A DNA stretch of 41,033 nt from Chiloscyllium plagiosum (lineage: Eukaryota): NCBI RefSeq assembly GCF_004010195.1, contig NC_057718.1:96053609-96094641 (forward strand). The letters are read 5' to 3'. The notes beneath the pieces are model-generated. The model ran no database searches, had not been told where the DNA came from, and was given only the letters and a program-made list of their open reading frames with translations. The translations under genes were made by a program, and so were the position numbers. Shown in pieces: positions 5,424-41,033 of this stretch. The stretch's first letter is position 1. Each line of letters begins with the position of its first letter.

Positions 5424-5552
5424 GGAGAAAGTGAGGACTGCAGATGCTGGGGATCAGAGCTTAAAAATGTGTTGCTGGAAAAGCGCAGCAGGTCAGGCAG
5501 CATCCAAGGAGCAGGAGAATCGACGTTTCGGGAATGCGCCCTTCTTCAGGAA
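5424..5552 (-). mobile_element. Penelope-like terminal fragment with hammerhead motif; flanked by direct repeat gaaagcaggctggg
   Basis: Near-identical to the PLE terminus at 30959-31082; direct repeat at 5412-5425 and 5556-5569. Confidence 0.85.
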
Positions 5553-5553
5553 C
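5518..5553 (-). ncRNA. Minimal type I hammerhead ribozyme motif
   Basis: Reverse strand ttc-CTGAAGA-agggcgcattccc-GAAA-c-GTC-gatt: CUGANGA core, stem II, GAAA, palindromic ACGU in place of stem III, GUC cleavage triplet. Confidence 0.65.
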
Positions 5554-6618: not shown

Positions 6619-7235
6619 GGAGGCACGGTGGCTCAGTGGTTAGCATTGTTGCCTCACAGCGGGTTCATGTCGGACAACTGTCTGTGTGGAGTTTGCACGT
6701 TCTCCTTGTGTATGCATGGGTTTTCTCCAGCTTCCCCCCCACAATACAAACCTGTGCAGGCCAGGTGAATTGGCCATGTTAAATTGCCCATAGTGTTCAG
6801 TGCATTCGTCAGGGTTAAATATAGGGTGGGGGAATGGGACTCTTCAGAGGGTCAGTGTGGACTTTTTAGTTTAGATTAGATTCTCCACAGTGTGGAAACA
6901 GGCCCTTTGGCCCAACAAGTCCACACCGACCCTCCGGGGAACAACCCATCCCCCTCTGATTAATGCACCTAACAGTATGGGCAATTTAGCATGGCCAATT
7001 CACCTGAACTGCACATTTTTGGACTGTGGGAGGAAACCAGAGCACCCGGAGGAAACCTACACAGACACAGGGAGAATGTGCAAACTCCACACAGGCAGTC
7101 GCCCGAGGCTGGGATTGAACCTGGGACTCTGGTGCTGTGAGGCAGCAGTACTAACCACTGAGCCACCGTGCTGCCCTAAACTTGTTGGGCTGAAGGGCCT
7201 GTTCCATACTGTAGGGAATCTAAGGATCTAATCCA
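6619..7235 (+). mobile_element. HE1-type SINE (host) split by an antisense HE1 copy
   Basis: Head at 6619; ...gtcagtgtggactt breaks at 6864 and resumes acttgttgggctgaagggcctg at 7180. Confidence 0.88.
6865..7176 (-). mobile_element. HE1-type SINE nested in HE1
   Basis: Full head-core-tail on the minus strand; actt duplicated at 6861-6864 and 7180-7183. Confidence 0.92.
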
Positions 7236-8294
7236 AGGTTTGTGGTAGTAAAAAACATTACGTTGACATTTTTGTGTCTTGCACTCATCAGGACATTTCA
7301 CAAGAATGCCAAGCCAAAGTTTTGAAAATGCCCTGATGAGTGTGAAACGTAAAGCTTCCACAAAATATGTCCCTTTTCAGCAACTGGCATTTTAGTGGAC
7401 AGAGGGCCACTGAAAACAACTGGCAGGGACTATGTCTTTCTAAGTAATGATGAGAATCAGCACTTTTCAGAAGACTGATCTCCATGCTGTATGCCAAATA
7501 GAGAAAAGGTCGAAAGAAATTGGCTGGCATGCTGAGTGGAAGCTGGTTCTGCTGCAAACTGTATGACGCAGAAAAAGGCCTGTACTTTGGTACAGGGAGG
7601 CTGATAAATAGCCGAAGTATACCAATTTCAGATCTCAATCAGAAATGTTCTCGTGAGCGCATTCAGCATGTAACTAAAAGGCCTAAATTAAAGGGAACAC
7701 CCTCCACATTGAGTACATGCAGAGACGAATGAACAGGGGAAAAGACTTCCAATTAGGATTGACATGTATGATAGCAGCTGGCAGTTCCTAGCTGAGCATA
7801 ACACAATATTTGGTACAACAAATACAATTCCTTATGACATGATAGTGGTGACCTTCAGCAATTAGAAAACGGGATTAAAATAGTTAGGTGATTGTCCATG
7901 ACCTGTGCAAACTTGATGGGTCAAAGGACCTTACTCTGTTCTGGCTCTATAATTAGAATGAACGTGGTAACACAACACTGATCATAATTGGTGCAAGTTT
8001 ATAAACAACTTCATTCTAATTAAACTTAAGAAATGAAAGCAAGATATTTTAGAGACAGAGGTGATTGATGATCAGATATTGGTTAAACCTGCAGAATCTG
8101 AGACATTACTTTGTAGAATGCAAGGAAAAGCTGGAGAGCCTAAGGGGTAGTATTGGTAGGGGAATTGAGGGGCCACATGGCGTGATTTATCCTAGGAAAG
8201 GGAAGGTCCCATACAGTGTGGCCTGTCCTGGAGAAGAGGAGGCTCCGACACAGAGTGATTTCTCCTGCAACTTGGTTGGGATGGCCCTGATTAG

Positions 8295-8472
8295 TTGAGA
8301 GTGTGTTGCTGGAAAAGCACAGCAGGTCAAGCAGCATCCGAGGAGCAGGAAAATCAAATGAAGCCTGAAACATCGATTTTCCTGTTCCTCGGATGCTGCC
8401 TGACCTGCTGTGCTTTTCCAGCAACACACTCTCAACTCTGATCTCCAACATCTGCAGACCTCACTGTCTCCA
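8295..8472. mobile_element. Palindromic Penelope-derived mini-element
   Basis: ttgagagtgtgttgctggaaaagcacagcaggtca... is inverted against ...tgacctgctgtgcttttccagcaacacactctcaa; 9-bp TSD cctgattag at 8286-8294 and 8477-8485. Confidence 0.85.
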
Positions 8473-8546
8473 TGATCCTGATTAGCCTGACTATATTTAG
8501 TGGCTGAGGAATGGTCACACTGAAAGGGACAATTGCAGACCATAAG

Positions 8547-9942: not shown

Positions 9943-10516
9943 GTGTTACCATTGACTATGTCTCATAACACTCAGGATGGGACCTCAAACAAGGCCCTAC
10001 CAACACTAACATAGCATAAGAACAATAATGTTTAGTAATGCACCAAAGAATGACAAAACCCCAGAACCTGTTACTATCATCTCTGGTATTCTCAAGGGTG
10101 TGAAATAGGAATGTTGCAGATGTTAATTGCCACCTTTCAAAGTTTTCTCAATTTACAAGCAATTCCTTTAGTTTGTAATATTGTAAATCTCAATTTTCTA
10201 TTCAGGAGATGTAAGAGTGAAACATGATTGAATCACAACTCACTTAATCTATAGCAGGAAGTTGTTAGGGGCTATAATTAAGTGTGAAGTAAGGGAACAT
10301 CTTGAAGGTTCGCAGAGAGAGCCAGTATGGATTTGATTAAAGGCAGGACATACTTGACAAAAAGTTGAACTTTTGAAGCACTGGTAAAAAGTAGTGGGAG
10401 ATGGGAATAACCCATGAGTATCATTTATCACGGTTTTCAAAAAGCATGAGAGAAAGTCCCAAGTAAAACTCTATTAACTATAGTTCAAACTGATGGCATT
10501 GAAGACCATTTGTTGC

Positions 10517-10726
10517 CAAGAGTGTGGTGCTGGAAAAACACAGCCAGTCAGACAGCGTCCGAGGAGCAGGAAAATCGACGTTTAGGGCAAAAAGCCCTTT
10601 GATGAAGGGCTTTTACCCGAAACATCGATTCTCCTGCTCCTCAGATGCTACCTGACAGGCTGTGCTTTTCCAGCACCACATTCTTGGCTCTAATCTCCAG
10701 GATCTGCAGTACTCACTTTCGCCTAA
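10517..10726. mobile_element. Palindromic Penelope-derived mini-element with fold-back centre in the hammerhead
   Basis: Arms caagagtgtggtgctggaaaa... / ...ttttccagcaccacattcttg; centre gacgtttagggcaaaaagcccttt|gatgaagggcttttacccgaaacatc; imperfect TSD aagaccatttgttgcc / aagacaaattgttgcc. Confidence 0.85.
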
Positions 10727-10940: not shown

Positions 10941-11257
10941 AGATTAGACTACTTACAGTGTGGAAACAGGCCCTTTGGCCCAACAAGTCCACACCGACCC
11001 TCCGAAAGCGTAACCCACCCAGACCCATTCTCCTACATTTACCCCTTCACCTTACACTACGGGCAATTTAGCATGGCCAATTCACCTGACCTGCACATTT
11101 TTGGACTGTGGGAGGAAACCGGAGCACCCAGAGGAAACCCACGCAAACACGGGGAGTATGTGCAAACTCCACACAGAGAGTTGCCTGAGGTAGGAATTGA
11201 ACCGGGTCTCTGGCGCTGTGAGGCAGCAGTGCTAACCACAGTGCCATCGTGCCGCCC
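10941..11257 (-). mobile_element. HE1-type SINE, full length
   Basis: Same head, core and tail as the other HE1 copies. Confidence 0.93.
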
Positions 11258-17485: not shown

Positions 17486-18130
17486 TATGTGTTTGTTTGT
17501 GTGCATGTGTGCTTGTTCATGTGTGTGTATGTGTGCATGCGTATATATGTCTTTTTATATGTGTGTGCATTTGTTTGTGTGTGTATGTGTACATGCATGT
17601 ATATACGCCTGTTTGGGCGTGAGTGTGTTTTTGCACATATGTGTTTGTATCTGTGTTTGTTCATGTATGTGTACACACACGTATGTGTGTCTGTTTGGGG
17701 ATGAGTGTGTGTGTTTGTACATGTTTGTTTGTGTGTGTTTGTTTGTGCATCTGTACACACATGTATGTGTGTCTGCTTGTGGTGTGTGTTTATTTATTTG
17801 TGTGTATGTTGGCACATGTGCATAAATGCTATTTGTGTGTGTTTGTAGATGTGTATGTGTGCACACGAGTATATATGTCATTTTGTACATGTGCATTGTT
17901 TGCTCATGCATGTATATGTGTATGTATGTGTGTGTTTGTCTGTGTATGTGTATATGTGCATGCATGTATGTGTGTCTGTTTGGGGATGAGTGTGTGCGTT
18001 TGTACGTGTGTGTATGTGCATGTATGTATGTGTGTCTGTTTGTACCTGTGTGTGTGTTTGTTCATGTGCGTGTTTGTTCGTGTACGTATATGTGTGTCTG
18101 TTTGTATATGTGCATGTTTGTTTGTGTGTC
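17486..18130. repeat. Degenerate (TG)n/(TGTA)n low-complexity tract, ~650 bp
   Basis: Largely alternating purine-pyrimidine sequence; source of the spurious C/V/M/Y-rich and H/T-rich ORFs. Confidence 0.97.
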
Positions 18131-18904
18131 AGCCCTGGGAACCAGGTTGATGCTTACTTATGATAAGAACCTGCCCATGGAGAGCCTTTTAACATGAGGA
18201 GGCTGCAGATACCCCATGGCTGATCGGGAAACTGGTCCACTCCGAACACCTACATTTTTGCATTTCAGAAGGATTTACATCTTGATATAATCAATCTGTC
18301 ATGACACATCTTCTGTGGCCATCAAGTCTTGAGGTAACTTTGACCCAGAGGTCCCACTGCACACAATTTCTGGTTGTTTTTTTCTTCTGTGACTGTAAAG
18401 GCTTCAAGTAATCATTATTATTTTTCTGTCCAGCTACATTTGTAATAGACTTCACCCATCACCTCTTAATGACAGGGTTGAGGGAGGAGGCTATCTCTCG
18501 AGAGATTGCAAGGCTCATCAATGACATCATCGAGAAGATTTAAGATCTAAATTGCTTTTTAATAAAGCCCAAATTAAACAATATCAATTATGAGTCTAAA
18601 TTTGTGGTGGTGTGTCAGTGTGTTTTTCTTGCATTTGTTTTCCACTTCAAACTGTAAACTTCAAATAAAATTTATTCTCAGGGCACTTTGTCTGAACAAA
18701 TGTAAAAGTATATGACCTGAACTTCTGGTTCAAAATGACCTTCATTAATTCACAGCAATTTTCATTCACATTGTTTTGTTTCAAAAACGAACTATGGTGC
18801 TTTCATATACATGATGCTGACACCTGCAAATGATGCAGTAACTGGATGAACATAAAGCCAACGAGTGAATTCAATTTCCTCTCTCATAAATTCATTTTAT
18901 TATT

Positions 18905-19640: not shown

Positions 19641-22244
19641 AATAAAATTGTTAATCAATAAGTATCAGTTAATTGCTATCTAGCTGTAGGTTCACATTTT
19701 ATCCTGCTTGACCGAATCACTTCATCTGGCCCTTCCTATGGGATCCATTACATTGAGTGATATCAATGGCTCAAATGGTCCTAGTGGGGGGTACTAACTG
19801 GAATGGACTTCATTTCCCCATTGTGAACTGACTGAGCTGGTAGAAGGTTCAACAAGAACTATCTACTTCCTTTAAAGTCTTTACTTCCCTCTTGCCTTTC
19901 TTGGTTTGATTCTTTTAAATCTCAACTCTAACCAAGCTGTTGGTAATCCTGATAATTGCGCCTTCTTTAATGGACTGTCCATTTTTGCCCCCTTATGCTT
20001 TTGCAAAGTGTCTTCAAAGTATTTGATATGCCAAAGCCACCATTTTGTTGCAAGTCCTCATTGAGCAGGACATGTCACATGGTATAGATAAATTTGTGGA
20101 GATACTCAATTGTACGATTGTGTTAAGAATTCGGAGAAAGGAGGTTTCAACTTAATTTGGAGAACTTGGGGCAGAGGGACAAAAATTTGCCAATGCCATT
20201 TAATATATACATAACCGTGCAGTTATACACCCAGATATAAATCTGGACTGCAACTTAAGTAAGTAAAATGTTGCTATTATTCACAAGACCTGAAAGAAAA
20301 TTCTAATGCAAGTCAACTTTGACTGAAGCAAAGAGGACTTTTTGTCAAATAATTCACTACAAATTGAGGATCCCCATGAAAATCCGGTTTACAAGTTTTA
20401 CATAAGGTTCGGCAATAAATGGAAACATCATTTGTTACACATCAAGAAAAGCAATGCAACAAAAGTAATAAGAATATCTTCACTCTAATTGCACTGAAGA
20501 TAGAATTTGTGCCATTCATTCACCAATCAGCCATTGACTTGGAAGGTATATGATTGCACATTATTATGGATGTTGGATCAGTAACATTCTGTGATGAGGC
20601 TCTGTAGAAATAGGACCCAACAATTTTAAGTGTGAAGGGAGGGAGGTTGGATATTCAGTTATTTTGGTTTCTTAGAGGGGACAGTGAATGACTTCTATTT
20701 CAGATGGGAGTGGGATTTTATTCTTTGCAATCTTTCAGAAAGGTGTTGGATGCATTCTTGAAAAATGAAGTTATCACACACAGAGGCAGGGAGACTATTC
20801 TACCTAACAACTAATCGTTTTAGGATCCATTCACTTTTGCTAGATCATCTTTCAAGAATGGAAGAAGGAATTTTTAACAGAGAATTGTTGAATTGGCTTT
20901 ATGTGTCTTTTCTTTCATTAGAAGATAGAAAGGACAGGGAAATGTAGGTAAGAGAGACAAGTCAAATGAGGCAAATGTGTATTGGCCTGCTGAGGTTATC
21001 ACTCTATGTACCCAAACCTCTGTGATCAATGATGAAGATCTGTGTACTTTCAGGAGTTCAAAAGACTTATTAACTGGAAAGGAGAGAAATGTAAAAGCCC
21101 TGTTTTTCTTTCAGTTGTCTGGTGAGGGTGTGTTAACCTGATCACTCTGGTGATGTAACAGGGTACATGGAACATATTTGTCTTGGGTTTCTATGCAACG
21201 TATTTATTTATTGTGTGCAGCAGAGATGTGCAATTTATGTAATCCCGATCATGGACATAATCACTCTGGGACCTTGCACCTCCCTGCTAGCTCAGTGGGA
21301 ATCTTAGAATCGGAAGACATTTGTGATTCAGTAAACTCTGTGATAAACAGGATGTCCATACTCGAGTTCCCAAGTGGATTGCCAGGAACTGTGTATTTGG
21401 CATTCTTGGTATCTTAGTGAGATTTACCTCACAAATTTGTTTCTATCTCATCATTATTTTGTTTTGGGAGTGGCGTCCAACACATTCTCCTGCTGCCCAC
21501 TCCCCATCCAAAATTACGTTATTGGAAAATTTAACAAAGCATAAACCAAATATCATTATGTAATCAGAACTTAGTTTGCTTTGATCTTGAATAAAAGTTG
21601 AAATTACATTTTTTCGACTTGGCTCCTGAGCATTTGTGCATGATAGTTGCATCACTTAAGTCACACAGATTTTTATCTGTGAATGCATTTTTATAAAACA
21701 AGACTCTTTCAACTCATGAATCTAGCAGATCAGAAATGGTTACGTTGAGAAGAACAAGTGCTCTTGAAGTGAATTACAGGCTTGTAAGATGTTTGAGATG
21801 TTTCTGAAGTCAGACTCTCTGAACTGGGTAAACACCACATTGAATTACAGGTGACAGCAACACATTTCCATCCACAGCCATTCGAACAGTGTGGTTAAAT
21901 TTAAGTCTTTTAGATCTTATTTAAGGTTACATATTTCAGTGTGTCAGCCATATTCAGGCGACTGGTCTTTTCCTTTCCATTTCACAGTGATTTTCTTAAT
22001 TTAGTCAAAAGCAATTGCAGATCAAGCACTTTATTTTTGCCTGTTTTTCTCTGTCAGTTCCCACTCACATTGAAATATGGATCCTTGGCTATAAGCAATG
22101 CATTCAAATAATGACTGGTCAGACTGTTCTATGAAAATGCATTCACGGGGAAAAAAGAAACAAATCCAGTGTGATTTAATGATGTAATTACCATACTTAA
22201 ATGCTCAGGAGTCCATTCTAAATGTAATTTCAACCTTGTTCACA

Positions 22245-24361: not shown

Positions 24362-24585
24362 TCGCAACAAAGTCAGCCAGGTGGACCTCTCACAATCTAG
24401 GATCCCTGATTGGGGCTGTTAACCTGGTGCAACAAGGGAACCCTGGCTGACAGAGATAAACGGAATTGTCAGAGGTTCTGTTCACTCTGAGAGCTGGCTC
24501 TGAGGGAGCCAGACCAGAGTCAAGTGCATGTGTAAATAAAGGATGACTCAGTGACAGGATACTGGCCTCTGTGAAGTTATTTTAG
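24362..24585 (+). mobile_element. Solo LTR-like repeat (~220 bp), empty copy
   Basis: Homologous to 39539-39823 (gtcagccaggtggacctc...gttcactctgagagctggctctgagggagc); CCAAT/ATTGG boxes, TATA-like gataaa, AATAAA at ~24535. Confidence 0.65.
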
Positions 24586-24880: not shown

Positions 24881-25192
24881 GATTAGATTACCAACAGTGT
24901 GGAAACAGGCCCTTCGGCCCAACAAGTCCACACTGACCCTCCAAAGAGCAACCCACCCAGACCCATTTCCCTAACTAACGTACCTAACACTGTGGACAAT
25001 TTAGCTTGGCCAGTTCACCTAACCTGCACAACTATGTGATTGTGGGAGGAAACCAGAGCACCCAGAGAAAACCCACGCAGACACCGGGAGAATGTGCAAA
25101 CTCCACACAGACAGTTGCCCGAGGCTAGAATTGAACCCAGGTCTCTGGCACTGTGAGGCAGCAGTGCTGACCACCGAGCCACTGCGCCACCC
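24881..25192 (-). mobile_element. HE1-type SINE, full length
   Basis: Same head, core and tail as the other HE1 copies. Confidence 0.92.
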
Positions 25193-26340: not shown

Positions 26341-27430
26341 AGGGGAGGCAACAGCCTGGTGGTATTTTCACTGAACTTTTCATCCAGAAACCCAGTTATT
26401 GTCTGGGGAACTGGGTTCGAATCCTGCCATGGCAGTTGGTGGAATTGGAATTCAATCAATATCTAAAATTAAGAGTCTCATGATGACTATTGTTGATTGT
26501 TGGGAAATACTCATCTGGATCACTAATGTCTTTCAGAGAAGGAAACTGCCATCTTTACCTGGTCTGGCCTACATGTGACTCCAGACCCACAGCGATGTGG
26601 TTAACTGTGACTAGGAGAAAGTGAGGATTGCAGATGCTGGAGATCAGAGTCCACTCCACCAGATGAAGTGTAAAATATGTGCCCATACCTCCCCCTCACC
26701 TCCATCCAAGGCCCCAAAGGATCCTTCCACATCTGGCAGAGAATTTTTTGCACATCCAAACACCTCATCTACTGTGTAAGTTGCTCTCGATGTGGTTTCC
26801 TCTACATTGGGGAGACTGAACGCACTTGCAGAGCGTTTCAGGGAACATCTCTGGGACACATACACCAAACAACCCCACCCCCCTGGCCAACCACTTCAAC
26901 TCTCCCTCCCACTCCACCAAGGACGTGCAAGTCCTGGGCCCCCTCCTCCGCCAAATCCTAGCCACCTGATGGCTAGAAGAAGAAGACCTCATCTTCCCCC
27001 TTTGGACCCGCCACATGGAATCAACGTCAATTTCAGCAGTTTCCTCATCTCCCCTCCCATCCCCAACCCACCAACTTGGCACTGCCCTCTTGAACTGTCC
27101 TACCTGTCCATCTTCCTTCCCACCTATCCATTCCACCCTCCGCTCCAACCGATCATCATTAACTCCCACCTGCATCCACCTATTGCCTTCCTAGCTACCT
27201 TCCCCCCAGCACTGGCCCTCTCATTTATCTCTCAGCCACCTTCCCCAATACCCACACCACCCCCACATTCCTGATGAAGGGCTTATGGTCAAAACGTTGA
27301 CTCTACTGCTTCTCAAGTACTGCCTGATCTGCTGTGCTTTGCTAGCACCACCCTTTGCAACTTTTAACTGTGGGCAATTAAGGATGGGCAATAGATGCCG
27401 GCCTAGCCAGTGATACCCCCATCCCATGAA
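26341..27430 (+). mobile_element. tRNA-SINE (26341-26610 and 27364-27430) split by a Penelope insertion
   Basis: Head ggaggcaacagcctggtggtatt...gggttcgaatcc (B box); tail gggcaattaaggatgggcaatagatgccggcctagccagtga resumes after the PLE. Confidence 0.78.
26612..27360 (+). mobile_element. 5'-truncated Penelope-like element: GIY-YIG endonuclease remnant, 3' UTR, degenerate hammerhead, inverted terminal piece at 5' end
   Basis: HLIYCVSCSRCGFLYIGET (GIY-YIG) in ORF 26677-26961; ctgatgaagggcttatggtcaaaacgtt at 27271; 26612-26651 is the inverted terminus; ttaactgtg on both sides (26601, 27364). Confidence 0.9.
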
Positions 27431-28112: not shown

Positions 28113-29477
28113 TTTATATACAGCAGTCTAGGTGCGGCATCCTTGTAGTTGTGTACAATTGAAGCAAGCCTTCACTCCTGTACTTAAAATCTTTTGTGGT
28201 TAAGGTCAACATATCACTTACCTTCCTAACTGCTTGCTGCACCTACCTGTTAGATTGCAATTGTTAATGTACGAGATCACACAGGTCTCTTTGATGTCAA
28301 CTCTTTCCAATCACTTACCATTTAAGAAATGTTTTGTGCATTTCTGTTTCTCAACAAAAGACAGATAACTTCAGATTTTTCATACTGTATTCCATCTGAT
28401 ATGTAGCTGCCAATTCACTTAATTCCATTGAAACCTTTTAGCATCCTCCTCACAACTCACATTCTCACTTAGTTTTGCATCATTGGCAAGCTTGGAAAGA
28501 TTACATTTCATCTTTAAATCCAAGTCATTGATAGAGCTTGTAAGAGATTGGTGTGGTAATCCTTGCAGCACCCCACTATCCACAGTTTACCAACCTGACA
28601 ATAATGCGTTTATTCTGTTTATTTAACGTCATTTAACTGATTTTTCAATCAGTAAATTACTCCTAAATGCTGTGTGCTCAAGTATGGTTCATTGACGTCT
28701 TGCATGGGACTTTATCAAAAGCCTTCTGAAAGTGCCAATACACCATATCCACTCATTCCCCCTTATAGAGTAATGGTCAGACAACTTATCTCACTATTTT
28801 CTAGCTAAACACTCAAGAAAATTCTTTCAGGTTTATCAAACATTATTTTTTTCACAAGTTCACATTGATGCTGTCCAATCATACTATTATTTCCTTAGTA
28901 TACAGTTATCATATCGAATCTAACATTTTCTGAACTACTGATGTCAGGCTAACTGGTTTCGAGTTCCTACAGCTTTCTGACTTTCTTTCTGAAGTAGTAA
29001 GTTTACATTCACCACCTTCCAATCTGCAGGAACCATTCTAGAATCCAAAACGTTTGGAAGATGACCGCCAATGCATCCATTATTTTTAGGTCACCTTTAT
29101 CAACATTCTGAGATATAAATTACCAGGTACATGGAATTACCTGACCTTCAGACCAATTAAGTTCTCTATTACTACTTTTTTTGCCAATGCTATTTTATGT
29201 CACACCTCATTCTCTTTAGTCCCTTAGTTTCCTAATAGTTCTGGGAATTTTTGTTTGTACTGTCTTCCATGAAGTGAAACATAGCCTTTTGTTTAATTTC
29301 TATGTCATTTTCTTAAAATTTCCTATCCCTGCCCGTAAAGGATTCATATTTAACTTTGATATTTTTGTTTCCTTATTGCATATCTACAAGATAACATAAC
29401 TGTTCAATGTTTCTTTATAGCTGAAAATGTGTTGCTGGAAAAGCGCAGCAGGTCAGGCAGCATCCAAGGAGCAGGAG

Positions 29478-29692
29478 AAACGACGTTTCAGGCATGAGCC
29501 CTTCTTCAGGAATGAGGAGAGTGTGCCAAGCAGGCTAAGATAAAAGGTAGAGCTGAAAATGTGTTGCTGGAAAAGCGCAGCAGATCAGGCAACATCCAGG
29601 GAACAGGAGAATCGACGTTTCGGGCATAAGCCTTCTTCAGGAATCCAGGGAGGAGAATCGACGTTTTGGGCATAAGCCCTTCTTCAGGAATC
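29478..29692 (-). ncRNA. Cluster of three minimal hammerhead motifs (cores 29482-29509, 29614-29640, 29660-29687)
   Basis: Minus strand CTGAAGA-a(g)ggct(c/t)atgcc(c/t)-GAAA-c-GTC; the copy at 29660-29687 has GAAA changed to AAAA. Confidence 0.7.
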
Positions 29693-29824
29693 CAGGGAGG
29701 AGGGACTTGGGGGAGGGGTGTTGGAAATGCGATAGGTGGAAGGAGGTTAAGGTGAGGGTGATAGGCTGGAGTGGGGGTGGGGGCGGAGAGGTCAGGAAGA
29801 AGATTGCAGGTTAGGAAGGCGGTG

Positions 29825-29986
29825 NNNNNNNNNNNNNNNNNNNNNNNNNNNNNNNNNNNNNNNNNNNNNNNNNNNNNNNNNNNNNNNNNNNNNNNNNNNN
29901 NNNNNNNNNNNNNNNNNNNNNNNNNNNNNNNNNNNNNNNNNNNNNNNNNNNNNNNNNNNNNNNNNNNNNNNNNNNNNNNNNNNNNN
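29825..29986. other. Assembly gap (162 N) inside the Penelope element
   Basis: Run of N. Confidence 1.
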
Positions 29987-29989
29987 ATT

Positions 29990-30958
29990 TCTTGTGGTTG
30001 CAGGGGAAGGTGCCGGGAGTGGAGGTTGGGTTGGTGGGGGGTGTGGACCTGACAAGGGAATCATGGAGGGAGTGGTCTTATCAGAGCACTGATAGGGGAG
30101 GGGAGGGAAATATATCCCTGGTGGTGGGGTCCGTTTGGAGGTGGCGGAAATGACGACGGATAACATGATGTATATAGAGGTTGGTGAGGTGGTAGGTGAG
30201 GACCAGTGGGGTTCTGTCCTGGTTGTGATTGGAGGGGCAGGGCTCAAGGGTGGAGGAGCGGGAAGTGGAGGAGATGCGGTGGAGAGCATCGTCGATCACG
30301 TCTGAGGGGAAATTGCGGTCTTTGAAGAAGGAGGCCATCTGGATTGTTCGGTATTAGAACTGGTCCTCTTGGGAGCAGATGCGGCGGAGACGAAGGAATT
30401 CGGAATATGGGATGGCGTTTTTACAGGGGGCAGGGTGGGAGGAGGTGTAGTCTAGGTAGCTGTGGGAGTCGGTCGGTTTATAGTAAGTGTCCGTGTTGAT
30501 TCAGTCATCTGAGATAGAAATGGAGAGGTCTAGGAAGGGGAGGGAGGAGTCTGAGACGGTCCAGGTAAATTTGAGGTTGGGGTGGAAGGTGTTGGTAAAG
30601 TGGATGAACTGTTCAACTTCCTCATGGGAGCGCGAGGTAGCGCCGATACAGTCATCGATGTAGCTGAGGAAAAGGTTGGGGCGTGGTGCCAGTGTAGCTG
30701 CGGAAGATGGACTGTTCCACATATCCTACGAAGAGGCAGGCATAGCTGGGGCCCATGCGGGTGCCCATGGCTACTCCTTTAGTTTGGAGGAAGCGAGAGG
30801 ATTGGAAAGAGAAGTTGTTCAGAGTGAGGACCAGTTCAGTCAGTCGAAGGAGGGTGTCAGTGGAAGGGTACTATTGGTACGGCGGGAAAGGAAGAAGCGG
30901 AGGGCTTTGAGTCCTTCGTGATGGGGGATGGAGTTGTACAGGGACTGGATGTCCATGG
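29990..30958 (-). pseudogene. Penelope-type reverse transcriptase and linker remnant
   Basis: YIDD at 30651-30662; in-frame stop at 30501-30503 and several frameshifts split it into ORFs 30840-31037, 30501-30722 and 30081-30338. Confidence 0.9.
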
Positions 30959-32942
30959 TGAAGGGCTCATGCCCGAAACGTCGATTCTCCTGCTCCTTGG
31001 ATGCTGCCTGACCTGCTGCGCTTTTCCAGCAACACATTTTCAGCTCTGATCTCCAGCATCTGCAGTCCTCACTTTCTCCTAGAATGTTTCTTTATAGTTT
31101 ACTTTCATTTTCTACTTTCCTTTGTTTATATCAGTTTCTTGGTCCTCCTTTGCTGAATTCTAAAATGCTTCCAGTCCTCAGGGTAGTTACTATTTTGGCA
31201 ACTTTATAAGGCTCTTCCTTTGACCAATGGAATCTTTAACTCCCCAGTGGTTAACCACAGCTGGATCACTTTTCTGGCTGAGCTTTTGTTCATGCAAACC
31301 TTGAAAGTTACACAGTTAAGTCTAGAGGTATTCAACAAGTCTCCACAGATAATGATCAGTTATGGTATTCAACTAACCTTTGTCAGCCTCCCTCTGACCT
31401 CTTTAGTGGGATGCCAATTATAGCGTCAATACTGACACTATTGACGATCAACTCAGTTCAAGCCAATGGCAAAACATAGAACCTTCATTCCTCACATTGC
31501 TCAACTCCATAATGAGTGGCACATCAGTGACTGAGACAGCAGATTGCATTTTTCAGTGCTTACTTCCACTCCTGCAACTTTACTGGCACAGAATGCAATG
31601 GGTACTGTTCATTTCCAAGAAGCAGAAATTGCAACAAACACTGGGACACTACAGCAGAACCAGTTCCTGTTCTCACTTGGTAAGGAGAGGCTCACTGGAT
31701 ACCACTTGGATGTGGGACTTCTGATGTTATCCTTTCTCGGGTAAAGCCAACAATAACACTCCTACCACTATCCATATTGTGGCGAATTAAATCACCAAGG
31801 ACTGCCTCATTATAACATGATTCATGTAAAATGCTGACTGGGGGAGAGATGAGGAATCGAGTCTCTTTACCCTAACAAAGGACGGTTTAGCTTCAGCTGG
31901 AGTTAAAGAAAAAGGCCAGGAAAACATTTCTCAAAGCATTTGGCTGGCCTGTATTTTTTTTTACATTGAGCATGCATTTTATAACAGCTGCCTTGTATTG
32001 GTCCTGCGCATTGAATTTGCAACATGCGTGTACACAGCAAGAAAGTCAACGGTTTTTTTGTCTGCCTTGACACTTCTTACAAACATCAGGATTGATGGCT
32101 GCCCTTAGCTGACGGAAGCTGACAGAAAAATGCACAGTGTAGAGAGTTTTTGTTCATTTGTATACTTAAGCATGTTTAAATTTCGAGCTTTGAGGTCACC
32201 AACTTTTCTCATGCAATTTCTCCACGATGTCTCTCCTTCAACAAACAAACAAATCTGAACCAAAGCAAATCCCCAAAGTTTAAAGAGATGTCCACAATCT
32301 TTCGGGTGACTTGTATACTATGTTATCTCTCCAATACACTTAGGCCACTGCGTTTCCTTCCTGTTAGCAGGAGGATGCTGTTTTCTTTTCGTAGGCCATT
32401 TTTATTAATGGAGCAGTGTCCAAAACAGAACCAGACAGCTCAATAAATCCATCGTGGAGATCCTGTATCCACCCAGACCACAGAACCAATTCAAATCCAT
32501 GCATCCTAAGCAGTTTGAATATGTGGTGGCCAGCTGTTGTTTGTTTTTCCAACGGCTACTGTAAATCATATCCATTTTTGTTGGCTTTAGCTGAATAATC
32601 AAAAGGCACTCCTCTTAATATATTGCAGCCACCTTATTGGGCAATATTTGTCTTCTATCTGAGAGGTTCCCTTCCTTTGTGTTATTCTTCCATTTCCTGT
32701 CCAACTGTTTCTCCCAAATTGTTCCCCCTGATTTGTACCATCTCTGCAGTAGAGTAGAGGAGATTGTGTAACAGTACCACCCTTTGGTTCTCCATTCAGA
32801 CTTGTATGTGGCAATGTGGCATTGTAACTAGCCTTTCTCAGTCTCTCTCAAGGTAACTATATGTCATGTTGTGTTAAAAGAGAAAATACTGCAACATAAT
32901 TAAGCTTTGTAGACCAAATTTGGTCTAAATCAGTCCTAGTTA

Positions 32943-34806: not shown

Positions 34807-35306
34807 NNNNNNNNNNNNNNNNNNNNNNNNNNNNNNNNNNNNNNNNNNNNNNNNNNNNNNNNNNNNNNNNNNNNNNNNNNNNNNNNNNNNNNNNNNNNNN
34901 NNNNNNNNNNNNNNNNNNNNNNNNNNNNNNNNNNNNNNNNNNNNNNNNNNNNNNNNNNNNNNNNNNNNNNNNNNNNNNNNNNNNNNNNNNNNNNNNNNNN
35001 NNNNNNNNNNNNNNNNNNNNNNNNNNNNNNNNNNNNNNNNNNNNNNNNNNNNNNNNNNNNNNNNNNNNNNNNNNNNNNNNNNNNNNNNNNNNNNNNNNNN
35101 NNNNNNNNNNNNNNNNNNNNNNNNNNNNNNNNNNNNNNNNNNNNNNNNNNNNNNNNNNNNNNNNNNNNNNNNNNNNNNNNNNNNNNNNNNNNNNNNNNNN
35201 NNNNNNNNNNNNNNNNNNNNNNNNNNNNNNNNNNNNNNNNNNNNNNNNNNNNNNNNNNNNNNNNNNNNNNNNNNNNNNNNNNNNNNNNNNNNNNNNNNNN
35301 NNNNNN
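34807..35306. other. Assembly gap (500 N)
   Basis: Run of exactly 500 N. Confidence 1.
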
Positions 35307-37329: not shown

Positions 37330-37452
37330 CCGAACCCTCTCCAGTTTAGTAATATCCTTCCTGTAACAGGGCAACCAGAACTGCACACAGTACTCCTGAA
37401 GTGGCCCCACCATTGTTTTATTCAACCTCAACATGACATCCCAACTCCTATA
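37330..37452 (-). mobile_element. CR1 internal fragment hosting a Penelope insertion (resumes 38117-38135)
   Basis: EYCVQFWLPCYRKDITKLERV in ORF 37315-37545(-). Confidence 0.85.
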
Positions 37453-38116
37453 GTTGAAAAATGTGGTGCTGGAAAAGCACAGCAGGCCAGGCAGCATCCT
37501 TGGAGGGTTCCTAGGCGGAAGATGAGGCGCTCTTCCTCCAGGCATCGTGTGGCCAGGGTCTGGAGATGGAGGAGTCCAAGGACCTGCACGTCCTTGGTGG
37601 AGTGGGAGGGTGAGTTAAAGTGTTCAGCCACGGGGCGTGGAGTGGGAGGGTGAGTTAAAGTGTCCAGCCACAGGGCGGTTGGGTTGGTTGGTGCGGGTGT
37701 CCCAGAGGTGTTTCCTGAAACATTCCGCAAGTAGGCAGCCTGTCTCCCCAATATAGAGGAGACCACATCGGATGCAACGGATGCAGTAAATGATGTGGGT
37801 GGAGGTGCAGGTGAATTTGCCCTCCCCCCACTTTATCTCAGTCCCAACCCTCGGATTCAGCACCGCCCTCTGGCCTATCACCCGACCTCTCCGCCCCCAC
37901 CCGCTCTCTGGCCTATCACCCTCACCTCCTTCCACCTAATGTATTCCCAGCGCCCCTCCCCCAAATTCCCTCCCTCCTACCTTTTATCTCAGCCCGCTTN
38001 GCCCGAAACTTCGATTCTCCTGCTCCTCGGATGCTGCCTGGCCTGCTGTGTTTTTCCAGCACCACATTTTTTTCAATTCTGGTACTCCAGCATCTGCAGT
38101 CCTCACTTTCTCCTAG
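37453..38116. mobile_element. Rearranged Penelope-like element with GIY-YIG remnant (-) and 3' terminus (+), 14-bp TSD
   Basis: HIIYCIRCIRCGLLYIGETG in ORF 37624-37935(-); TSD tcccaactcctata at 37439-37452 and 38117-38130; 40-bp tandem duplication at 37598-37677. Confidence 0.92.
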
Positions 38117-38812: not shown

Positions 38813-39538
38813 AATGTTGGCAAGTTGTTTCTTGGGGAATCATGGTTAGCTGTATGATCGGACTGCTAAAGACTTATCTGATCCCTCTGTGGGATTATTA
38901 AGCAGGACAGTCTAAACCCTGGGGATGAAAGCACTGGCTGAGGACAGGAAACAGCAGATGTTCAGTTACAGCAGTTGTGTCAGGAATGGGAGCAAGCATT
39001 AAGTCAGATTTATAGGCTTCAGAATGATGTTAACTACTGTTTCAAATCGATAATGCAATAGATTCCAAAGTGGCCAACATTTGCTGATAGTTGCAACTTG
39101 CACAGAGCATCAACATTGGAAAAGACAGCTCAGAAATTACTTTGGACTTGGGACAATCGCAGAAAACAGCAAAGCTGCATCAGATGAAGTTTGATACAGA
39201 AGAGTGTGGCATGTAGGAAGTGAAGACAGCTGACAGACAATGCATTAAAATAGATGTCAAGAAGTGGCCAGTCCTGGCAGATTCATATTAAACATAAGTT
39301 AAAGGCATTCAAGGGTTTACAGGGTGAAGGACAAAACATAAGGGTGTAGATCCAAGCAGAATGGCTCTTACAAATTGCCAGCACATGCAAAATGGAACGA
39401 ATGGCCTCTCCAATTCAATAATTTTAAAAGCATTCAACCAACGCAGAGCAGTGGTCTACAAAGCCAATGAGATTTTGAACGACACAACTAAGAGCAGAAT
39501 ATAAGCGAGGCAATGACAAAGCTTTATAACATAGTGAG

Positions 39539-39823
39539 TGTAATGAGGTCAGTCAAGTGGACCTCATAGGAGCTAACTGATTGGACCAGGTTAACAGCCC
39601 CAATCAGGGAGCCCTGGCTGACAAAGATAAACAGGACTGTTCACACCTGCGCACACACACAACATGGGTGCTGGGGAAAAAAAATAAGCATAACTGCAGT
39701 TAGGCGGTAGTGTGGGGGTAATAAAGAAAAACTGAAAAACAATAAACAGGAGTGTCAGACATCTTGTTCACTCTGAGAGCTGGCTCTGAGGGAGCTGGAT
39801 CAGTGTGCGTGCAGGGACTCTCC
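39539..39823 (+). mobile_element. Second LTR-like copy, carrying a ~100-bp insert and cut off by a Tx1 element
   Basis: Starts tgtaatgaggtcagtcaagtggacctc; aligns to 24362-24525 but lacks the 3' part with AATAAA. Confidence 0.75.
39641..39741 (+). mobile_element. Short LINE 3' tail (stem-loop, AATAAA, A-rich end) with TSD ataaacagga
   Basis: ataaacagga at 39627-39636 and 39742-39751; AATAAA at 39720; imperfect hairpin cataactgc-agttag-gcggtagtg; absent from the copy at 24362. Confidence 0.7.
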
Positions 39824-40059
39824 TCCTTGAAGATGTCAGAGGGGAAGGGGACTGTCCCTGAACCAGCTGCCCCACATCGAGAGAGCTCTAGGAAGGGAAG
39901 AAGAAGGAGGAAGAAGAAGAGGAAGCGGCAGAAGCAGAAGGAGGTGAGAGCTTTGAGTCCTGGGCCTACTTTTGGAGTTGCAGCCTGGGCCTCACTCAGG
40001 TAAAGGGAGTGTTGCTGCTGACCTGGGGCCCACTCCCACTGCTGGTCTCTGGGACCCCA

Positions 40060-40545
40060 CCCGGACCTGCCTCAGCTGTTACTGCTTGGGGCCTGCCTCA
40101 CTGCTGCTGCCTGGGACTCTCCTTGGGGCCCCTCCCAGGACCTCCACCACTGCCGCTGCTGTCAGAGGCCCACCTCCATCGCTGCTGCCTGGAACTCAAT
40201 TTTGGGGCTGCCTGGGACTTGCCTTGGGGACCCTCCCTAACAGGTCTGCCCCACTGCTGCGACCAAGGGCCTGCCTAGGACTTGCCTGAATCCTGCCTCC
40301 AACGCTGAGGCCTGCCTCCACCACCGCTGCCTGGGACTCACCTTAGGCCCCTCCCCACAACCTCCACCACTGCTGCGACCTGAGGCCCACCTCCACCGCT
40401 GCTGCCTGGGACTTGCCTTGGGGACCCCCCCCCAACAAACAGGCCTGCCCCCACCGCTGTGACCAAGGCCTACCTGGGACTCACTCTGGTGCTGCCTGGG
40501 ACTTACCTGATGCCTGCCTCCACTGCTGCTGCTGCCTGGGGACCC
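40060..40545 (+). repeat. Tandem repeats in the Tx1 5' UTR (short ctgcctgggact units arranged in two ~200-220-bp blocks)
   Basis: 40107-40326 and 40327-40520 share ctgcctgggactc..cctt..gcccctccc..acctccaccactg..gaggcccacctcca..gggacttgccttggggaccc..aacagg.ctgcccc..gaccaagg. Confidence 0.85.
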
Positions 40546-40583
40546 GATTGGACTCTTGTCAAGCCTGTGGAAGACAGCAAAGC

Positions 40584-41033
40584 ATGGCGAGCCCAAAGGT
40601 TGCGGGGCCCAGCCGCACCTACACCGGGGTAGCCGCTGCCTTAGGCTCGGCTGCTCCAAACCCGGCTGCAACCACGAACCCCTTCAGGCACCTAACTAAA
40701 TGCCTGGGGGTAAAGTCCTATCCCCACCCCAACATGACCATCGAGGCCTGCAGCAAGGCCATGGCTAGTGTGGTCGGCCCACTGGCCATCGTCGCTGCGG
40801 CCCGGATGTACGGGAAGGCCGTCTTCTTCCTGAAGACCGAGCAGGCGGTCCACCTGGCCGTGGAGAGGGGGCTCGCTGTGGGCGGGACACATTTGCCCGT
40901 CGACTCTCTGGAGGTTACGGCCCAGAGGGTCGTGATCTCCAATGTCCCGCCCTTCATTGCCAGCGAGCTCCTTCTCCCCCACCTCAACACCCTGGGGGAG
41001 ATCCGGTCGGGTGTCCAACCGCTCCTGCTCGGT
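40584..41033 (+). CDS. Tx1-type ORF1 protein, N-terminal 150 aa (incomplete at window end)
   Basis: My translation has no stops: MASPKVAGPSRTYTGVAAA...PFRHLTKCLGVKSYPHPNMTIEACSKAMASVVGPLAIVAAARMYGKAVFFLKTEQAVHLAVERGLAVGGTHLPVDSLEVTAQRVVISNVPPFIASELLLPHLNTLGEIRSGVQPLLLG; the A.RM...V.FL and V.ISNVPPFI motifs match Tx1 ORF1 as I recall it. Confidence 0.88.
   Translation, partial: MASPKVAGPSRTYTGVAAALGSAAPNPAATTNPFRHLTKCLGVKSYPHPNMTIEACSKAMASVVGPLAIVAAARMYGKAVFFLKTEQAVHLAVERGLAVGGTHLPVDSLEVTAQRVVISNVPPFIASELLLPHLNTLGEIRSGVQPLLLG

Follow-up and report, generated by a model that had tools for sequence, protein, structure and literature searches.

A Tx1-type LINE and a truncated retroposon tail in one LTR-like repeat of Chiloscyllium plagiosum: a candidate target at an LTR TATA box and a possible LTR-derived LINE head

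In a stretch of Chiloscyllium plagiosum DNA of 41,033 nucleotides (the window), a single copy of an LTR-like repeat contains both a short polyadenylated retroposon tail and the 5' end of a Tx1-type LINE, which raises the question of whether one LINE family targets this repeat and whether its full-length copies carry part of the repeat with them. The available text of Kojima (2015, PMC4494074), where a Tx1 family is considered target-specific when over 20% of its flanks are of one kind, describes two crocodilian families of the Tx1-Mar group, Tx1-8_Crp and Tx1-4_AMi, that prefer LTR retrotransposons. These two families, which resemble the window LINE in their association with LTRs and are its closest precedent, were missing from the sequence-specific elements listed in the earlier note on this DNA. 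In the literature covered, which extends to neither Repbase nor most subscription papers, no shark family of Tx1 elements residing in an LTR came to light.

The repeat and the insertion that interrupts its second copy consist of the following features:

24362..24585, + strand: first copy of the LTR-like repeat (empty site), about 220 bp, uninterrupted and diverged, ends approximate
39539..39626, + strand: U3-like 5' part of the second LTR-like copy, starting with TGTAA, CCAAT at 39600
39577..39607, strand not assigned: inverted arms 39577-39584 and 39600-39607 enclosing a 15-base loop, in the orientation opposite to that of the first copy
39627..39636, + strand: target-site duplication, first copy, ATAAACAGGA, overlapping the TATA-like box
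39637..39741, + strand: 5'-truncated retroposon tail with a possible stem-loop at 39689-39712, AATAAA at 39720 and an A-rich end
39742..39751, + strand: target-site duplication, second copy, ATAAACAGGA (TATA-like site)

The second copy of the repeat spans 39539-39823, including an insert of 105 bp, and is recognizable as such by the region following the insert, in which 54 out of 65 bases are identical between 24456-24520 and 39742-39806 (blastn E 4e-14). The local alignment of the two copies scores 75, whereas none of 20 shuffled queries exceeded 28, and a chance repeat was rejected on this basis. The copy at 24362-24585, previously described as intact, is indeed uninterrupted but clearly diverged, and carries its CCAAT-bearing arms and loop at 24406-24436. 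The 5' parts of the two copies show just 69% identity as written because the 15-base loop between the arms has been flipped, 39581-39613 agreeing at 31 of 33 bases with 24400-24432 when one of them is reverse-complemented. Hundreds of contigs from related organisms carry the loop in the orientation of the first copy, with loose ends at 39577, 39600 and 39610, and such a hairpin-bound micro-inversion could mark lineages of the LTR. When folded as DNA, both inverted-arm regions and the tail showed no gain over shuffled sequences (z -0.7 to -1.7).

Several signals expected of an LTR are present in the repeat, namely the TG start at 39539, the CCAAT box, the TATA-like site, an initiator-like motif and, in the first copy, AATAAA at 24535. 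The motif TCACTCT occurs in both copies, with its A located 28 bases after the start of the duplication (39770 in the second copy), and by consensus a TATA box at about -29 combined with an initiator at 39770 would be the layout of an LTR promoter. Inspection of the first copy for LTR termini revealed no clear CA end and no flanking host duplication, no gag-pol interior was found within the 41,033-nt window, and neither the LTR core nor the tail had any exact-pattern match (0) in viral_contigs, metagenome_contigs and genome_contigs.

Positions 39000-41033 were also compared with the contig runs of three related organisms (X1, X9 and X12) and with one run of raw RNA reads, four of 24 runs listed. 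The RNA run gave 0 reads from a share of about 6 in 100, too small a sample to bear on transcription; for the contig runs, the depths given below are summed depths of the best-supported rows and are not copy numbers. The flank at 39000-39538, which is single-copy, has a depth of 5 in X1 and 11.4 in X9, X12 being without flank. The flank contigs of both X1 and X9 stop at 39568, 30 bases into the repeat, so that both organisms must have the repeat here. Relative to the flank, depth in X1 and X9 respectively is about 11,900 and 6,700 for the LTR 5' part, 20,700 and 9,700 for the R part, 12,700 and 19,700 for the tail, 1,250 and 1,590 for ORF1, and 150 and 118 for the start of the UTR. Repeat and tail are thus both very abundant in related organisms, and the tail exceeds ORF1 in depth by a factor of 10-12 and the 5' end by a factor of 85-167, a steep fall that is expected from 5' truncation. 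In X9 the tail is two to three times as deep as the LTR, an excess that requires either stacking of tails or many off-target copies.

The LINE begins where the repeat is cut off, and comprises the following features:

39752..39823, + strand: LTR spacer, initiator-like TCACTCT and R-like part to 39806, followed by 39807-39823; candidate LINE head
39824..40583, + strand: 5' UTR of the Tx1-type LINE, 760 bases, 63% GC, with a purine-rich tract at 39892-39940 and, in 40087-40532, degenerate repeats spaced by about 220 bases
40584..41033, + strand: Tx1-type ORF1, first 150 codons (tandem RRM-like part), from the ATG at 40584 to the end of the window

This arrangement agrees with what had been read from the sequence before, that the repeat runs some 70 bp after the insert into the 5' UTR and ORF1 of a Tx1 element, since the LTR ends at 39823 and the frame is open over 150 codons. 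An initial search with ORF1 returned 5 matches, comprising sturgeon and turtle proteins (51-58% identity, against 45-56% in the wider comparison) and a EukProt gene model (78%). An exhaustive search gave 404 matches at E up to 0.001, and a profile built from 34 of these sequences matched 155 proteins; among the 120 of them listed, at least eight bear the name 'Transposon TX1 uncharacterized 82 kDa protein' and a further protein that of 'YTX1'. Seven of these eight were compared with ORF1 and all match it, with E from 3e-11 to 1e-17, as anticipated from its proposed Tx1 type; the 31-38% identity is to fish proteins named after Tx1L and not to Tx1L itself. Four unnamed JGI proteins are closer, at 61-64% identity. 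A CCHC knuckle (zf-CCHC) is found in 26 of the 34 aligned members, and its counterpart in the window element would lie past 41033; the predicted structure of the homolog P0006, 62% identical to the window ORF1, matches tandem-RRM structures. ORF1 proteins with RRM and CCHC domains from non-mammalian animals have been linked to the Tx1 clade, according to the portion of PMC5203782 available.

Other searches were less informative. Pfam gave nothing above cut-off for the 150 amino acids of ORF1, Rfam gave 0 matches, the top matches of the ORF1 profile among solved structures were zinc knuckles only, and the nearest clusters in the ESM Atlas are unnamed. Scanning with the ORF1 alignment gave 600 pattern matches in viral_contigs and 55 in genome_contigs, none of which was confirmed as a locus, and an antisense frame across the junction had 7 candidates, none of which scored. 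Membership of the window ORF in the Tx1 ORF1 family is supported at the level of sequence, and it is through ORF1 that the LINE can be provisionally placed in the Tx1 clade, its ORF2 lying beyond the window. Among the ORF1 relatives, P0006, P0243, P0249, P0250, P0251 and P0253 (60-64% identity) come from JGI contigs of 1.4-3.9 kb. The EukProt model P0005 has a reverse transcriptase fragment followed by UTR-like and ORF1 sequence 78% identical to that of the window, an order that may reflect head-to-tail copies in what is a gene model only.

The way in which the LINE is joined to the repeat is central to the interpretation of the locus. LTR-like sequence stops at 39823, 72 bases past the second copy of the duplication, after being interrupted by five extra bases (39807-39811); the 12 bases that follow these (39812-39823) match the normal LTR continuation at 11 positions, the sole such match in the window. 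Ordinary LTR contigs exit the window earlier, at 39806 (737, 703 and 626 contigs in the three runs). Summed depths at 39814 and 39833 are 760 and 751 in X1, 1380 and 1346 in X9, and 3692 and 15017 in X12, giving ratios of 1.01, 1.02 and 0.25, which are a proxy over 12 LTR bases obtained from contigs rather than from assembled copies. The letter of the normal LTR continuation is carried by 97-99% of the depth at 39814. No 5-base gap at 39806 was found among the best 12 of 34 indels, and hence the junction contigs are unlikely to be gapped LTR contigs. X12, with its low ratio, argues against a shared junction, and the junction contig listed for it begins at 39809 and has 19 further leading letters unaligned. 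Since depth at 39814 equals that at 39833 in X1 and X9, the LTR bases must be carried or adjoined family-wide in these two organisms. The LTR/Tx1 5' junction is thus common across the family and not private to this locus, as observed over 12 LTR bases in two organisms, and the whole R part together with the promoter in front of the LINE is visible in the window copy alone. We consider it likely that full-length copies throughout the family start with an LTR head.

A junction shared at 39823 would fit equally well if the Tx1 family had a second fixed landing site, about 54 bases into R, and no LTR head of its own. This site would immediately precede the poly(A) signal, whose sequence is similar to the TATA site. 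The tail would then represent the same or another family inserted at the TATA site, and the LINE might still use the LTR promoter. There is a precedent in the crocodilian Tx1-Mar families, which use two sites in one transposon, as reported in the accessible text of PMC4494074. However, duplication of the second site would place its A-rich bases 5' of the LINE, where they are absent, the LTR ending before them, and the extra bases 39807-39811 are not explained. Two separate sites therefore seem to us improbable, and the point at 39823, located 70 bases downstream, is more probably the end of an LTR-derived head than a second landing site.

With respect to the tail, an A-tailed insert flanked by ATAAACAGGA had already been noticed in the second repeat copy, and it is delimited here to 105 bp, 39637-39741. 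Both an A-rich 3' end, consisting of AATAAA and an A-rich run with A at 16 of the last 22 positions, and a target-site duplication are present. The duplication falls exactly on the break in the alignment with the first copy, and when extended by four bases (first copy to 39640) it is identical at 13 of 14 positions; taken alone, a 10-base direct repeat at such spacing is not rare, since the window has 36, of which 19 do not fall in the TG-rich tract. A third ATAAACAGGA lies at 21343-21352, without an LTR around it and with no insertion seen. Among the best 15 of 604 joints in the three related runs, 10 omit the insert, and therefore empty sites exist. In X1, 23 contigs extend the tail upstream of 39641 with different sequence, from which it follows that the 105-bp insert is a truncated copy, as the earlier note had supposed, and the end of a longer and abundant element. 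The tail had been thought to begin at 39641, but the insert starts at 39637, and 39641 is where the longer copies of relatives stop matching. The last five bases of the upstream sequence in the longer X1 tails are identical to those that come after the duplication in the target, and microhomology of that kind is typical of truncation junctions.

At 39691-39692, 98-99% of the depth in relatives has other letters than the window, and these letters complete, by inspection, a stem of 9 pairs with a 6-base loop before AATAAA; the stem-loop at 39689-39712 may serve as a signal for recognition of the RNA. Contigs that join the A-tract directly to the target number 4-6 per run (row 39740). Loose ends before 39765 amount to about 200 per run and were summarized by majority letter, the majority at the two T positions of the TATA box being T at both in X1, T followed by A in X9, and A at both in X12. 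These observations suggest that many A-tails recur at the TATA site across relatives, although the A-rich majority could instead reflect LTR variants, because the two window copies themselves differ at the TATA box. The proposal that a Tx1 family targets the repeat thus gains its firmer ground from the LTR junction, which is family-wide in two of three runs, the recurrence of A-tails at the TATA box being suggestive only. We find it quite probable that a Tx1-clade LINE family homes to the TATA site of this abundant LTR-like repeat, and likely that the 105-bp tail derives from the same family as the LINE.

The tail could also belong to an unrelated and abundant LINE or SINE with a loose liking for A-rich nicks, for which the TATA box would be a hot spot and not a dedicated target, the LTR junction of the Tx1 element being a separate and older event. 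In agreement with this, tail depth is at least equal to LTR depth and yet just about 160-300 flank-equivalents pass over 39740, none of the contigs listed spans from tail to ORF or joins the tail to ORF2, and a 3' stem-loop is typical of L2/CR1-type tails. On the other hand, low depth at 39740 is expected given the variable length of A-runs and the diverged run found here, and the same orientation, the A-tail and a duplication of 10-15 bases suit an enzyme of the L1/Tx1 kind, so that we regard an unrelated tail as unlikely. More doubtful still is that the junctions reflect common descent, a single old composite of LTR and Tx1 having been amplified either through duplication or by the LTR element itself. 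A single junction common to about 120-150 flank-equivalents is what the copying of one composite would give, and the same control was raised by Kojima for SINEU-3 (PMC4494074, in the text available). Against this, both the duplication and the truncation point of the tail are particular to it, longer copies being present elsewhere, and because its flank is single-copy in X1 and X9, a segmental duplication of the locus was rejected. An assembly artefact was rejected in view of the duplication, the open ORF and the occurrence of the junction bases in other organisms.

As a whole, the best explanation for the locus is one target at the TATA box, two insertion events and an LTR-derived head on the LINE, a combination to which we assign roughly even chances. 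According to this explanation, the endonuclease would nick the TATA box of the LTR and target-primed reverse transcription would copy the A-tailed RNA, leaving a duplication of 10-15 bases that restores the target site; the nick and the priming mechanism are inferred from the clade, whereas duplication and tail are observed. Most insertions would be 5'-truncated, like the 105-bp insert. Full-length copies would start with part of the LTR R region, of which the shared junction at 39812-39824 is observed and the full extent is presumed. Transcription of the LINE from the LTR promoter, as we predict it, has about even odds; the LINE RNA would then start at the LTR initiator (39770), so that its first 54 or so bases would be LTR sequence. 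On integration, the cDNA of this head could pair with the identical target bases in the way suggested for R2, so that CCAAT, TATA and initiator would again stand in front of the new full-length copy. Under full-length insertion by head pairing, some 80 bases should be duplicated. The window locus would accordingly be the product of two insertions at one site, the first giving a full-length copy and the other a truncated copy at the TATA site before it, and as the truncated insert would have shifted the CCAAT box 115 bases away, the promoter of the window copy is probably weakened.

The stretch from 39770 to ORF1 contains two ATGs where 4.4 would be expected, and in 2000 dinucleotide shuffles 154 had two or fewer and 3 had none, a deficit that falls short of significance when the window copy is taken by itself. 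The contigs of relatives mostly have another letter at both of these ATGs, at 39833 in 99-100% and at 40511 in 100%, 99% and 54%. This scarcity of ATGs fits a leader of about 814 bases, and leaves its start unlocated.

Taken further, the family would be a parasite of promoters, with a full cycle of TATA-box cutting, transcription from the LTR initiator and head-guided joining by homology downstream of the nick. We put this prediction forward tentatively, as somewhat less probable than its failure. In such a cycle full-length insertions would rebuild promoter and landing site, while truncated copies would disable LTR promoters by thousands. By analogy, and with the same reserve, this would amount to an R2-like life cycle in an APE LINE on the Pol II promoter of a rival transposon.

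Known systems resemble parts of this picture. For the closest precedents, Tx1-8_Crp and Tx1-4_AMi, the main text of PMC4494074 names neither the LTR site nor a TATA box, which its supplementary figures may do, and the head of Tx1-4_AMi is described there as derived from U1, whereas the candidate head of the window LINE is derived from the LTR. In the same available text, SINEU-2B_Crp has a target-like extension of about 42 bases (Mariner-N4_AMi) at its 5' end, and transcription from the flanking target was proposed for it; it differs in being a non-coding SINE, in a DNA-transposon target, in antisense and with no promoter recognized in that text, whereas the window LINE encodes ORF1 and lies in sense behind a TATA/initiator pair. 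Tx1L of Xenopus laevis, the type element of the clade, has an APE endonuclease specific for one site in Tx1D, according to the portion of PMC1950540 available, its target being a DNA transposon and not an LTR. R2Bm, which inserts in 28S rDNA, is co-transcribed from its target, and its RNA is believed to bear target sequence at the 5' end, the cDNA of which can anneal to the target's top strand (PMC6895275, as far as its accessible text goes). R2Bm differs in its RLE endonuclease, in using a host gene transcribed by Pol I and in a head that matches sequence upstream of the nick, whereas the head of the window LINE would match sequence downstream of it; the likeness is one of working only, not of membership.

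Homing of Tx1 elements to other transposons, LTRs included, was known already, and what is added here is the family-wide LTR junction at the 5' end, which makes promoter borrowing a concrete and testable claim. Homing alone, if true, would add to the list of Tx1 targets an example of cartilaginous-fish type with a precise site, the TATA box, and a short and defined target is of interest for the enzymology of site-specific LINEs. If the reading of head and promoter is also true, it would answer for one family the question posed by Kojima on how Tx1-type elements that choose targets are transcribed, provide an APE LINE in which homology-guided 5' joining could be tested, and present one transposon that both exploits and disables the promoters of another.

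Elsewhere in the window, an open frame of 199 codons at 1229-1828 matches RVT_1 weakly (E 0.007, which is below cut-off) and is presumably a fragment of a CR1-type LINE. Three diverged coding-like fragments (26765-27274, 29792-30950 and 37428-37832) are mutually related and may be Penelope-like. Several families of dispersed short repeats, which are probably SINEs or LINE ends, occur in both orientations, at 5458-5553, 8292-8473, 10513-10725, 29418-29691 (near-tandem copies), 30951-31081 and 37452-38070, and at 1857-2142, 6875-7166, 10943-11248 and 24882-25182. Assembly gaps are found at 29825-29986 (162 N) and 34807-35306 (500 N), none of them within 4 kb of the LTR/Tx1 locus, and about 650 bases at 17486-18132 consist of a degenerate simple repeat rich in TG/TA.
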